A stretch of DNA of 60,308 nt from a virus. Lineage: Duplodnaviria > Heunggongvirae > Uroviricota > Caudoviricetes. The notes under the pieces are model-generated. The model saw only the letters and a list, made by a program, of their open reading frames with translations, made no database searches and was not told the origin of the DNA. A program made the translations under genes and the position numbers. Location of the stretch: IMG/VR virus record IMGVR_UViG_2923339551_000004; one strand, 5' to 3'. Positions 47,387-52,663 of this stretch are shown here, piece after piece. Every line of letters starts with the position of its first letter. Position 1 is the first letter of the stretch.

Positions 47387-47410
47387 GGGGATGGGTAAGA
47401 GCGGGGTTAT

Positions 47411-47620
<210 letters not shown>

Positions 47621-47637
47621 TTAGTACATGCAACTAT

Positions 47638-47701
47638 TATCACCGCCAGAGGTAAAATAGTCAACACGCACGGTGTTAGATATTTATCCCTTGCGGTGAT
47701 A
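47638..47701. promoter_or_regulatory. OR: right operator OR1-OR2-OR3 with divergent promoters pR and pRM
   Basis: tatcaccgccagaggta (OR1), tcaacacgcacggtgtta (OR2), tatcccttgcggtgata (OR3). Confidence 0.9.
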
Positions 47702-47708
47702 GATTTAA

Positions 47709-48425
<717 letters not shown>

Positions 48426-48552
48426 TAGGAAGTAAGTTTTATGTTGACGGCACAGTCAACTTGGCATAGATTAATTAAACCAAGCCCAGCCCCGTTCGCA
48501 GACAATTGTTAATATCTGCATAACGGCTCTGGGCTATTTTTTTGGGACTCTT

Positions 48553-49410
48553 ATGAAGAAAGCAGCAATTTTAATTGATGCGGGTTTTTTCATGCAGCGT
48601 GTTCATGCTACGCATCGTAAACACTTCGCCGAGCATGAACTGACTGCGCAATGCATAATGAAAGTAATATGGTCAATGGTTCTTTCCCATCTTAATGGAA
48701 AACGTCAATCACAAGAACGTAGGGAACCGCTTGAGCTTTATAGAATTTACTTCTATGACTGTCCACCACTCGACATTCAAACACGCCTTCCACTTCCTGA
48801 GCCTGGCAATAAGACGCCTGGTCGCAAGAATTTCAAACTCGAAAAATCATATATTCTGAGAACGGAGCTGCATGAAGAGTTAAGAAAAACTCGAAAAACA
48901 GCCTTAAGATTAGGGAATCTTGTTGATAATAAGCGATGGCAACTAACTACATTCTCCCTTGATGCTCTGATGAAAGGAACGAAAAAATGGGATGAACTGA
49001 CAAATGATGATTTTTACTATGACATCAAACAAAAACAAGTTGATATCAAGCTAGGGATGGATATCACGACTTTAGCTTATGAAAAACTTGTTGATGTAAT
49101 TGTCCTTGTTGCTGGGGACTCAGACTTTGTGCCTGCCGCCAAACACGCCAGAATTAAAGGTATTGATTTTATTCTTGATCCACTAAGACAGAATGTTACC
49201 CCATCACTGTCAGAGCACATTGATGGAGTTCAGTCATACAGCTTGATATCAGGACTTGCCGATGCTTTACATGTTGAGCCAGACCCGGCACCTGACTGGT
49301 GGGAAGATCGAAAAAAAGGCAAGCCTAGGGGAAAAAACAATAGCGGTAAACGCAGGTATGGAAACACTCAAGCTGAGTCTGCAAAGAAACATCAAAGAAA
49401 TAAACGATAA
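48553..49410 (+). CDS. NYN-domain (PIN-like nuclease superfamily) protein with basic C-terminal tail, occupying the rexAB position
   Basis: N-terminal AILIDAGFF, central KQVDIKLGMDITTLAYE and VIVLVAGDSDFVPAA resemble NYN/LabA-like motifs; no similarity to RexA or RexB. Confidence 0.55.
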   Translation: MKKAAILIDAGFFMQRVHATHRKHFAEHELTAQCIMKVIWSMVLSHLNGKRQSQERREPLELYRIYFYDCPPLDIQTRLPLPEPGNKTPGRKNFKLEKSYILRTELHEELRKTRKTALRLGNLVDNKRWQLTTFSLDALMKGTKKWDELTNDDFYYDIKQKQVDIKLGMDITTLAYEKLVDVIVLVAGDSDFVPAAKHARIKGIDFILDPLRQNVTPSLSEHIDGVQSYSLISGLADALHVEPDPAPDWWEDRKKGKPRGKNNSGKRRYGNTQAESAKKHQRNKR

Positions 49411-49600
49411 TCCCATCAACCCGGCCACCGAGCCGGGTTTTCTTTGCCTCACGATCGCCCCACCTAAAAACACATAACCAATTGTATTTATTTTAAAATT
49501 AATAGGTGCAACTCACTAAACAACGCAATTCTGATCTCTCGATCACCTCCCAAGCCACACAACCCTGCAAAAAATAAATCTATATAAAAAACATACAGAT

Positions 49601-49661
49601 AACCATCTGCGGTGATAAATTATCTCTGGCGGTGTTGACACAAATACCACTAGCGGTAATA
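49601..49661 (+). promoter_or_regulatory. OL: left operator OL1-OL3 with promoter pL
   Basis: aaccatctgcggtgata, tatctctggcggtgttg, taccactagcggtaata; -35 ttgaca. Confidence 0.9.
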
Positions 49662-49702
49662 CTAAACACACCAGCAGGACGCACTAACCCACATGAAGGT
49701 GA

Positions 49703-49891: not shown

Positions 49892-50789
<898 letters not shown>

Positions 50790-50930
50790 TTAAAAGACAG
50801 GCATACTAATAAACACTGCACTGTGTATTTATTCCAACGAGTGAATACACGGAGCAATGTCGCTCGTAACTAAACAGGAGCCGACTTGTTCTGATTATTG
50901 GAAATCTTCTTTGCCCTCCTGGATTTGCCC

Positions 50931-51836
50931 CTATATTTCCAGACATCTGTTATCACTTAACCCATTACAAGCCCGCTGCCGCAGATATTCCCGTGGCGAG
51001 CGATAACCCAGCGCACTATGCGGATGCCATTCGTTATAATGCTCGAACGCCTCTGCAAGGTTCTTTGCTGCCGTTAACCCGTCTGGTTTGGGCATGATAC
51101 TGATGTAGTCACGCTTTATCGTTTTCACGAAGCTCTCTGCGATTCCGTTACTCTCCGGACTCCGCACCGCCGTGTTCTTCGGTTCAAGTCCCAACATCCG
51201 GGCGAACTGGCGTGTTTCATTAGCCCGGTAGCATGAACCATTATCCGTCAGCCACTCCACTGGAGACGACGGAAGATCGTTGCCGAAGCGGCGTTCCACC
51301 GCTCCCAGCATGACGTCCTGTACTGTTTCACTGTTGAAGCCGCCGGTAGTGACCGCCCAGTGCAGTGCCTCACGATCACAGCAGTCCAGCGCGAACGTGA
51401 CACGCAGTCTCTCTCCGTTATCACAGCAGAACTCGAACCCGTCAGAGCACCATCGCTGATTGCTTTCTTTCACGGCCACTCTGCCTGTATGTGCCCGTTT
51501 CGATGGCGGTACAGCAGGTTTTCGCTCAAGCAACAGCGCATTCTGGCGCATGATCCGGTAAACACGTTTGGCATTGATCGCAGGCATACCATCAAGTTCT
51601 GCCTGTCTGCGAAGCAGCGCCCATACCCGACGATAACCATACGTGGGCAGCTCTCCGATAACATGGTGTATACGGAGAAGCACATCCGTATCATCAGTGT
51701 GACGACTGCGGCGGCCATCCATCCAGTCATCGGTTCGTCTGAGAATGACGTGCAACTGCGCACGCGACACCCGGAGACAACGGCTGACTAAGCTTACTCC
51801 CCATCCCCGGGCAATAAGGGCGCGTGCGCTATCCAC
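50931..51836 (-). CDS. insD: IS2 transposase InsD (OrfB)
   Basis: 301 aa, DDE transposase. Confidence 0.9.
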
Positions 51837-52159
51837 TTTTTTGCCCGTCCATATTCAACGGCTTCTTTGAGGAGTTCATTTTCCATCGTTTTCTTGCCGA
51901 GCAGGCGCTGGAGTTCTTTAATCTGCTTCATGGCGGCAGCAAGTTCAGAGGCAGGAACAACCTGTTCTCCGGCGGCGACAGCAGTAAGACTTCCTTCCTG
52001 GTATTGCTTACGCCAGAGAAATAACTGGCTGGCTGCTACACCATGTTGCCGGGCAACGAGGGAGACCGTCATCCCCGGTTCAAAGCTCTGCTGAACAATT
52101 GCGATCTTTTCCTGTGTGGTACGCCGTCTGCGTTTCTCCGGTCCTAAGACATCAATCAT
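51794..52159 (-). CDS. insC: IS2 InsC (OrfA)
   Basis: [47 protein letters not shown]... Confidence 0.9.
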
Positions 52160-52294
52160 CTGCTCTCCAATGACTAGTCTAAAAACTAGTATTAAGACTA
52201 TCACTTAAATAAGTGATACTGGTTGTCTGGAGATTCAGGGGGCCAGTCTACCTCCAGTGTGAGGGCGATTTTTTATCTATGAGGATATGAATAG

Positions 52295-52663
52295 GTGTCA
52301 AACATCAAAAAATACATCATTGATTACGACTGGAAAGCATCAATAGAAATTGAAATCGACCATGACGTAATGACAGAGGAAAAACTTCACCAGATTAATA
52401 ATTTCTGGTCAGACTCTGAATACCGACTCAATAAACACGGCTCTGTATTAAATGCTGTATTAATCATGCTGGCGCAACATGCTCTGCTTATAGCAATTTC
52501 AAGCGACTTAAATGCATATGGTGTTGTGTGTGAGTTCGACTGGAATGATGGAAATGGTCAGGAAGGATGGCCTCCAATGGATGGTAGCGAAGGAATAAGA
52601 ATTACCGATATCGATACATCAGGAATATTTGATTCAGATGATATGGCTATCAAGGCCGCCTGA
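52295..52663 (+). CDS. ea10: Ea10 (Ssb-like early protein)
   Basis: 122 aa, MSNIKKYIIDYDWKASIEIEIDHDVM... Confidence 0.85.
   Translation: MSNIKKYIIDYDWKASIEIEIDHDVMTEEKLHQINNFWSDSEYRLNKHGSVLNAVLIMLAQHALLIAISSDLNAYGVVCEFDWNDGNGQEGWPPMDGSEGIRITDIDTSGIFDSDDMAIKAA

Follow-up and report, generated by a model that had tools for sequence, protein, structure and literature searches.

A NYN-family nuclease gene and a conserved leader RNA in the rex position of a lambdoid prophage

In lambda, rexA and rexB are co-transcribed with cI, and the lambdoid rex slot is a classic site of lysogen-protective genes. What occupies this slot when rexA and rexB are missing from an otherwise lambda-like immunity region, and might the occupant serve the lysogen as well? 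The question is raised by a 60,308-nucleotide (nt) stretch of Caudoviricetes DNA (IMG/VR record IMGVR_UViG_2923339551_000004; the whole stretch is called the window below), in which an original prediction, made from the sequence alone, had pointed to a single open reading frame (ORF) of 285 amino acids (aa) directly downstream of cI. Here we describe this ORF as an NYN-family nuclease gene that forms a cassette with a promoter-like site and a structured 5' leader RNA, and we present this compact cassette as a candidate RNA-gated nuclease system.

The region in question is a lambdoid prophage immunity region that lies in the orientation opposite to the usual lambda map. Alignment with lambda by blastn revealed cassette edges that are clean and exact: the cI flank is 97.9% identical from 47400 to 48429, homology is lost at 48429, only 4 nt after cI ends, and it is back at 49418, where lambda has the final 2 nt of the rexB stop codon. 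From there the similarity spans the immunity terminator, the left operators (OL), pL, nutL and N, up to 50215. The same search found no lambda DNA homology within 48430..49417, and no rexB. Since homology ends at 48429 and resumes at 49418, 988 base pairs (bp) stand in for the 1396 bp that hold rexA and rexB in lambda. Within them, the nuclease ORF begins 127 nt past the lambda-type cI gene, and the cassette comprises the following features.

48430..49417, + strand: replacement cassette in the place of lambda rexA-rexB (blastn against lambda)
48443..48460, no strand assigned: perfect inverted repeat GTTGAC-N6-GTCAAC over the -35 hexamer (sequence reading)
48444..48472, + strand: sigma-70-like promoter TTGACG-17-TAGATT (consensus scan, 9/12 matches)
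48483..48535, + strand: leader RNA hairpin, with stems P1 (48483-48489/48529-48535), P2a (48492-48496/48522-48526) and P2b (48498-48502/48515-48519)
48537..48543, + strand: U7 tract that completes an intrinsic-terminator-like element, a single A standing between stem and U7 (sequence reading)
48553..49410, + strand: NYN-family (PIN-like) nuclease gene, 285 aa, ATG start (uninterrupted ORF)
49303..49407, + strand: Lys/Arg-rich C-terminal tail, residues 251-285 (translation; predicted disordered, predicted local distance difference test score (pLDDT) about 50)

The NYN assignment of the 285-aa protein is sound. The Pfam family PF01936 (NYN) matched residues 158-205 only, with 36.8 bits against a cut-off of 24.2 (E 6.8e-9), and the NCBIfam model TIGR00288 matched residues 100-207 with 29.6 bits, far under its equivalog cut-off of 178; the protein is thus an NYN member at the level of the domain and not a member of the TIGR00288 family. 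PHROGs assigned it to phrog_5783, a family of unknown function, and its relatives are numerous, with 7035 at E <= 0.001 (90% clustering) and 1344 cluster representatives at 50% identity. Across 35 aligned relatives (41-86% identity), residues D9, D69, D164, D170, D189, D191 and D224 are invariant. These Asp residues sit in typical NYN motifs (I-D-x-G-F, V-D-x-K-L-G-x-D and G-D-S-D-F) and, as judged from the sequence, fit the predicted NYN metal-binding site. A sequence-profile search of the PDB returned no solved relative at E <= 1, and therefore a fold search was required. The AlphaFold model built from the 35-relative alignment (pLDDT 86.5, predicted template modelling score (pTM) 0.78, the last ~35 residues excepted) has a PIN-like alpha/beta/alpha fold that is nearest to solved NYN domains.

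The nuclease core comprises residues 1 to about 250. The remaining tail has 14 Lys/Arg among its 35 residues, and across the family its length and charge vary, being basic in many members and acidic or absent in others. Compared to the characterized NYN nucleases (MARF1 and VPA0982/LabA-like proteins; PF01936), the window protein shares the fold and, to judge by its sequence, the acidic active-site residues, but it carries ~100 additional residues inserted in the core as well as the basic disordered tail, and it belongs to a large bacterial and phage subfamily of its own (phrog_5783) with a dedicated leader RNA. By virtue of its family membership, the protein would be a metal-dependent nuclease with RNA as its substrate. 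Taken together, these results uphold most of the original prediction. A single, uninterrupted ORF starting with ATG on the + strand lies in the exact rexA/rexB slot, without rexB and followed by the terminator, OL1-3/pL and N as in lambda; its profile score, predicted fold and invariant Asp residues identify it as NYN/PIN-like; and the basic tail is present.

The leader RNA and its promoter

The original prediction had also described a hairpin plus T-run between cI and the ORF, and had considered that the gene might be attenuated or have a promoter of its own. Both elements are found. The promoter-like site at 48444..48472 is a consensus prediction, and the hairpin with its T-run (48483..48543) is indeed terminator-like; what did not hold is the notion of an incidental cI terminator, as the element proved to be a leader found throughout the nuclease family. 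A covarying, family-wide leader belongs to the nuclease gene, and the unit is therefore promoter, RNA and ORF together; in this anatomy, with the NYN gene in the rex slot, we have high confidence. The window hairpin has a folding energy of -25 kcal/mol (z = -4.98), which none of 200 shuffled sequences equalled, and its conserved 12-nt loop is CAAUUGUUAAUA (48503-48514). A simple terminator scan had missed it because the loop is longer than 8 nt.

To place this element in the family, we compared the 200 nt 5' of nuclease homologues. The first set held 11 loci from 5 host groups (a Proteus P22-like phage; Brenneria, Pantoea and Edwardsiella prophages; a Pseudomonas aeruginosa plasmid-like element; a Proteus chromosome; a Burkholderia P2-like phage; a Streptococcus phage; and a Dorea phage), and the enlarged sample held 80 genome loci and 80 viral loci. 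All 11 of the first loci displayed the same order of promoter-like site, long hairpin, U-run and ATG, the start codon lying 9-30 nt past the U-run. Two forms of the leader can be told apart. The commoner form, class I, occurs in Alpha-, Beta- and Gammaproteobacteria, Acidobacteriota, Bacteroidota, Verrucomicrobia, Elusimicrobia and phages of Firmicutes. It consists of an 8-bp P1, a 5' junction CAGUAMG, a variable P2 hairpin whose loop retains AU, a 3' junction (N)GCCGANCC, the return strand of P1 and a U-run. The window has the other form, class II, whose hosts are Enterobacterales, Pseudomonas, Acinetobacter and Pasteurellaceae; here a 7-bp P1, a 2x2 internal loop, a 5-bp P2a, a 1x2 internal loop and a 5-bp P2b are capped by a conserved 12-nt loop, yAAUnGUUAnnn, and the U-run follows.

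The pairing of both forms is supported by covariation. In a MAFFT alignment of 40 class I leaders, 82.9% of the cells are paired versus 70.9% after shuffling (0/500 shuffles reach the observed value), two-sided changes are seen in 14/15 pairs, and sliding the partner strand by 1-3 columns reduces pairing to 29-61%; an alignment fitted to the covariance model gave similar figures. A U-tract comes after P1 throughout class I (59/59 unique leaders): a stretch of 9 nt always contains four or more T, and in 49 leaders six or more. Among 22 distinct class II leaders, pairing amounts to 96% of cells versus 82.8% in shuffled sequences (0/500) and at most 45% in slid controls, with two-sided changes in 14/17 pairs. 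Covariance searches were equally specific as to place and strand. In 91 sequences (631 kb, both strands) the class I model had 49 matches at E < 1e-5, all of them on the sense strand and directly 5' of the nuclease gene. This model did not detect the leader of the window, and a separate class II alignment and model (R2) were accordingly built. In 560 kb, R2 found one match above 60 bits for each class II locus, always directly upstream of the gene (sense strand 62-81 bits, antisense at most 26 bits). In the window its sole match is 48481..48541, with 79.8 bits on the + strand and 25 bits on the - strand, and the covariance model found no leader in the lambda genome. On this sequence evidence, the leader appears as a strand-specific structured RNA, supported by covariation, at a fixed position before the gene. 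Homology between the two classes is suggested by their shared position and architecture and by intermediate Pseudomonas forms that keep CAGUA, no single model spanning both.

The window hairpin was found 100% identical in loci where the ORF DNA is only 76-88% and the promoter region only 66-78% identical, a pattern indicating that the leader is under stronger conservation than the ORF. It is also apparently undescribed. Rfam 15 holds no family that matched either form, whether 20 loci were searched with gathering scores or the isolated leaders of locus L086 and of the window at E <= 10, and the RNase E leader family is among those without a match; the window region was likewise free of relevant matches at E <= 1, the scans giving chance matches to long non-coding RNAs only. 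In the literature that we searched, we found no description of the NYN family, of what it does at the rex locus or of the leader. The gene itself has been annotated at the domain level and variation of rex-slot cargo is known, which makes the gene-in-slot part a modest finding; the more interesting result is a widespread structured RNA tied to the NYN family. As a rejected candidate we mention pairing of the leader loop with the start region of the nuclease mRNA, for which inspection by eye gave only a short AAUU match.

We also examined the association in the reverse direction, by scanning metagenome contigs with a stringent sequence pattern of the leader motif. Out of 120 matches, 70 had a nuclease gene starting within 200 nt downstream. 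When the count was confined to motifs whose P1 pairs well and which have 500 nt or more of sequence behind them (n=55), the gene came next in 43 and remnants of its first codons in 4. The rest of these motifs had a HicB-like, HEPN-like, DUF2283-like or GNAT gene next to them, or nothing obvious; by-eye calls from translations placed the leader before a HicB-like antitoxin, HEPN, DUF2283 or GNAT-like gene on contigs L278, L288, L280 and L225. The promoter-leader unit may thus be reused before other cargo, often of toxin-antitoxin type. Viral contigs yielded eight pattern matches, six of them genuine, with the gene in three, a locus end cutting off one, and no gene in two. Two E. coli phages retain the leader beside a damaged gene. 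In the Stx1 phage AU5Stx1 (locus L311, 2340..2707) an identical leader (79.8 bits) lies downstream of cI while all but the last 47 codons of the nuclease ORF are gone, and in prophage Sp1 of O157:H7 Sakai (locus L312, 2552..3013) the leader is followed by a truncated ORF of ~116 first codons (ECs_0273).

The promoter-like site recurs with the leader. Among 60 unique leaders, 31 have a sigma-70-like site on their 5' side compared to 7.9% of control windows, and in 25 of these 31 the -10 hexamer is 9-13 nt from the leader motif. In Bacteroidota loci, sequence reading by eye revealed TAnnTTTG ~12 nt ahead of P1, which we take to be the -7 box of that phylum. In the window, the transcript is predicted to start at about 48479-48481, only 2-4 nt ahead of P1. 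The leader would then be the very 5' end of the transcript, a start so close to P1 leaving no room for an upstream anti-terminator. We infer both the use of the cassette promoter and the efficiency of termination from these sequence features. The inverted repeat over the -35 hexamer may be a candidate operator for a dimeric DNA-binding protein; a similar arrangement, TTGAC-N6-9-GTCAA with a differing spacer sequence, recurs 5' of Edwardsiella-type, Pseudomonas and Tatumella homologues.

An AGUA strand facing GA(N) is the sequence signature of the bulged-G (sarcin-ricin or loop E) motif, a frequent protein-recognition module. The class I leader, with AGUA on its 5' strand and GA(N) on its 3' strand, resembles this motif, and we speculate that an RNA with such a loop could stand in as a decoy for a structured target RNA, ribosomal or other. 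The signature is lost in the window leader, and CAGUA is retained in the Pseudomonas forms.

Genomic contexts and distribution

Where else is the module found? In 37 of the 80 viral loci, and likewise in nearly all relatives of more than 73% identity, a cI-like repressor of 197-246 aa on the same strand ends 128-551 nt upstream; those repressors that were run against Pfam have an S24 peptidase domain, and they represent several immunity types. In Edwardsiella-type prophages the module lies on the opposite strand between the Q antiterminator and holin genes, and this Q-to-lysis slot carries stx in Stx phages. It adjoins the integrase gene in the Streptococcus phage and the Burkholderia P2-like phage, and higBA in the P. 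aeruginosa plasmid-like element. In Proteus it is found just downstream of glmS, one chromosomal copy being common to Proteus species. Such contexts (repressor, Q-holin, integrase, HigBA, glmS) are typical of mobile toxin-antitoxin or accessory modules. The 149 flanking proteins of the 80 genome loci fall into 117 Pfam families, none of them recurrent, which rules out a conserved protein partner. With one protein, one RNA and no recurrent neighbour, the module is autonomous; it is also mobile, and it is not enriched in defence islands. In Pseudomonas yamanorum (locus L029, 5509..5708) we noted a C4 antisense RNA with its a1/b1 target (RF01695, RF03163) ~1.8 kb 3' of the NYN homologue. C4 antisense RNA and its target are typical of P1/P7-like phage immunity systems, and their presence hints that such loci are prophage immunity regions.

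The window gene is 100% identical to copies in phages ev099, E212 and EC.P3. In the RefSeq record of ev099 it is named "NYN domain-containing protein" and stands in the same order of cI, NYN gene and N; the cassette is further present in phage 2B8 and in about 48 records of Stx2a-converting phages, and in these phages and in E212 and EC.P3 it is mostly unannotated. Among 5426 complete E. coli genomes, 275 hold part or all of the cassette, 74 of them at full length and always within a prophage immunity region, and about 200 have truncated copies. PGAP divides the 858-bp ORF into two features in E. coli 104 (locus L003, 4124..4981) and HCM-28C-2 (locus L004, 3124..3981), namely a pseudogene labelled 'partial, missing C-terminus' and a shorter NYN protein. 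Since this DNA is identical to the uninterrupted ORF, a broken gene is ruled out and the split is an annotation artefact, one that probably stems from the use of a truncated O157 protein as evidence.

Readings of the cassette

How might such a cassette work? With some hesitation, because it falls slightly short of an even chance in our judgement, we propose that it encodes an RNA-restrained toxic nuclease of type III-like layout that acts in lysogen exclusion or addiction. It would be a self-contained mobile module made of a sigma-70-type promoter, a short 5' RNA ending in a terminator and the gene for a metal-dependent NYN nuclease. Transcripts from the cassette promoter and from cI would mostly stop at the hairpin and U7, yielding an abundant RNA of ~65 nt and a trickle of nuclease mRNA; with most transcription stopping at the leader, the nuclease would be made only by read-through. 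The nuclease would have the leader RNA as its specific partner, and this RNA would work in cis (as an attenuator or autoregulatory target), in trans (as an inhibitor) or in both ways. Its conserved loop and junction bases exceed the needs of a terminator, which suggests a specific recognition site, and the nuclease, as the only other constant component, is the simplest candidate for the partner of the RNA. Such an RNA would keep a potentially toxic RNase silent in the lysogen; if the balance were upset, for instance when infection brings transcription shut-off or RNA decay or when the element is lost, the nuclease would cut cellular or phage RNA and so bring about abortive infection, exclusion or addiction.

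Toxicity of the nuclease, its interaction with the RNA and a phage-defence phenotype are what we infer here by analogy. A coupling of RNA and protein is, from the sequence comparisons, somewhat probable, and as to an anti-phage role we lean mildly towards doubt. A bolder version, in which the cassette represents a phylum-spanning, toxin/antitoxin-like immune module of RNA and protein whose single, non-repeated RNA both attenuates and neutralises a PIN-like RNase, and which serves as a drop-in for RexAB, seems rather unlikely to us.

The proposal of an RNA-restrained nuclease draws on several known systems, none of which the cassette fully resembles. Like rexAB, it fills the interval from the cI stop codon to the immunity terminator before OL/pL, a slot that carries lysogen-protective cargo. 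However, the two are related neither in sequence nor in fold, the RexAB sensor and membrane protein being replaced by one soluble nuclease, and the NYN gene is split from cI by a terminator and has its own promoter-like site. The location downstream of cI is thus that of a RexAB-type system, and the two-gene composition is not, as there is a single ORF with matches to NYN and phrog_5783 only. Closer in kind are the differing genes found within an identical cI/OL framework in phages HK244, HK542, HK544, CL707, mEp332 and mEp234 (GenBank EF120455-EF120460); in mEp234 the slot holds hicA/hicB, an RNase toxin-antitoxin pair, and RNase-toxin cargo at this locus therefore has a precedent, although the occupant described here, an NYN gene with its leader RNA, differs from all of those. 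Type III systems (ToxIN, AbiQ, CptIN, TenpIN) consist of a promoter, a small RNA, a terminator and a nuclease, and are mobile on phages and plasmids (PMC3401426, PMC5086642). The same layout is seen in the promoter-like site (48444-48472), hairpin (48483-48535), U7 and ATG (48553) of the window, together with mobility and the lack of a protein partner. HEC-09 of PADLOC is likewise a single-gene NYN protein that has been proposed as an antiviral RNase; its match to the window protein is weak and partial (E 2e-4, residues 155-200), and the domain make-up differs. No full-length match to any defence model was obtained from PADLOC-DB 2.0, in which HEC-09 and the 'NYN' model (E 1.4e-3) matched only part of the NYN core; these matches being partial and below threshold, membership of a known defence family is ruled out. 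Finally, the autoregulatory leaders of rne, rnc and pnp are also conserved, structured 5' untranslated regions before a ribonuclease gene, but they are not terminators at the very 5' end of a transcript.

Several observations weigh against an RNA-restrained defence nuclease. The type III antitoxin is built of tandem repeats, whereas the RNA of the NYN module is a single hairpin: Tandem Repeats Finder gave 0 rows for 48300-49600, and the covariance models show one RNA copy. The protein has an NYN/PIN-like fold and not that of ToxN, AbiQ, CptN or TenpN; as both the tandem-repeat RNA and the ToxN-fold toxin fail, the module is not a member of type III and the likeness is one of layout only. The promoter scan, which counts consensus matches only, found 3 sites in the region compared to 5.1 expected by chance. 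A few homologues, located after icd or purK, have a GC-rich hairpin upstream in place of a class I or class II leader and yet keep the catalytic residues. HEC-09, a distant relative and the only tested NYN defence candidate that we found in the literature, gave no protection from the phages used in the test (bioRxiv 10.1101/2024.01.29.577857). Furthermore, chromosomal neighbours are mostly housekeeping genes with few defence-model matches by PADLOC, and this association hence supports defence weakly. The recurrent use of prophage accessory-gene slots keeps a defence function plausible; the circumstantial support for it is mixed, and we put it forward as a hypothesis.

Could the hairpin simply insulate a plain accessory gene? 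It would then end the cI transcript and block read-through, or stabilise the 5' end of the mRNA, while the nuclease, made at a low constitutive level and with no specific tie to the RNA, attacked incoming phage nucleic acid directly. Phage accessory genes often have their own promoter and terminator, the element resembles a canonical intrinsic terminator, and the hairpin stays downstream of cI where the nuclease is deleted (AU5Stx1) or truncated (Sp1), as if it served cI. A terminator, however, needs only a GC stem and a U-run, and such needs do not explain why the CAGUAMG and GCCGANCC junctions are conserved across phyla, why the AAUnGUUA loop is conserved in the class of the window, or why the leader stays 100% identical while the ORF DNA drifts to 76%. 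The element also follows the gene's own promoter in unrelated contexts without cI, and we consider mere insulation unlikely. A riboswitch-like attenuator, in which a small molecule, or a factor of host or phage other than the nuclease, binds the leader and so sets read-through into the nuclease gene, would account for a conserved hairpin with an asymmetric internal loop and a coupled terminator, as in small OFF-switch aptamers, and for conservation across phyla that have few host proteins in common; the palindrome at the -35 hexamer hints at an additional regulatory input. We nevertheless find this reading quite improbable: a transcript predicted to start 2-6 nt before P1 allows no alternative anti-terminator fold, the expression platform is invariant, the element accompanies one gene family and not a metabolic regulon, and Rfam has no match for it.

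The nuclease might instead be an autoregulated RNase without anti-phage function, concerned with RNA turnover or processing or with lysis-lysogeny control, that phages have picked up repeatedly. Autoregulation of RNases via their own 5' untranslated regions is well established, for instance in the RNase E and RNase III leaders; chromosomal copies of the NYN gene lie among housekeeping genes, including the one common to Proteus species, with few defence neighbours by PADLOC, and phage copies lie in lysogeny modules beside the repressor or integrase. Such a role fits less well with a patchy and mobile distribution, in which the 74 full-length E. coli copies are all in prophage immunity regions, with classic accessory slots such as the stx-type slot between Q and lysis, with frequent decay to the truncated copies of about 200 E. 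coli genomes, or with the replacement of a known exclusion system, and we regard it as distinctly unlikely. That the window gene is a decaying, non-functional remnant in a defective prophage is scarcely credible. The early-left region does contain an IS2 copy at a distance of 1.4 kb, truncation affects many E. coli copies and PGAP splits the identical sequence, but the window ORF is intact with all family-invariant residues present, it is 100% identical to the genes of ev099, E212 and EC.P3, and the split is an artefact of annotation.

In many Stx2a-converting phages of pathogenic E. coli the rex slot carries this uncharacterised nuclease, which makes it a concrete candidate for a new function in exclusion or addiction; such a function could shape prophage competition and the outcome of phage therapy. 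Beyond E. coli, a structured RNA is tied to one nuclease family in Proteobacteria, Bacteroidota, Acidobacteriota, phages of Firmicutes and other groups. If this RNA restrains the nuclease, the logic of RNA antitoxins, known from three type III families, would come to include a PIN-like enzyme with a non-repetitive RNA, in a compact two-part system of ~1 kb; were the RNA a sensor instead, it would represent a new class of attenuator.

Other features around the cassette

The lambda-like framework on either side of the cassette is as follows.

47411..47611, - strand: cro, part of the immunity region
47712..48425, + strand: cI, lambda-type repressor of 237 aa, the upstream neighbour of the cassette and outside it (ORF list and blastn against lambda)
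49418..49449, + strand: intrinsic terminator shared with lambda at the end of the immunity operon, outside the cassette (terminator scan, 49418..49439 plus T-run)
49602..49663, + strand: operators OL3, OL2 and OL1 with the pL promoter, pL-like TTGACA-17-AATACT (lambda homology and annotation)
49892..50215, + strand: N (arrangement as in lambda)

DNA identical to the window cI is labelled as a LexA-family repressor in RefSeq. Directly past N, a 167-aa ORF (50208..50711, - strand) lies at the position of lambda sieB; lambda similarity stops exactly at the N stop codon. It matches phrog_1244 (function unknown) and no Pfam family, has C-terminal CxxC and CxxC-like cysteine pairs, and is listed in RefSeq as a hypothetical protein (WP_001278766.1). 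It may be a second swapped cargo of exclusion type.

The IS2 copy spans about 50806..52204, and its minus-strand ORFs (51794..52204 and 50931..51836) match the transposase of IS2, an IS3-family element, which is found at the same place in E. coli HCM-28C-2. It is inserted between the ORF at the sieB position and a DUF2528 gene (52295..52663). The insertion could alter expression of the pL operon, and it suggests that the prophage is defective or partly disabled.

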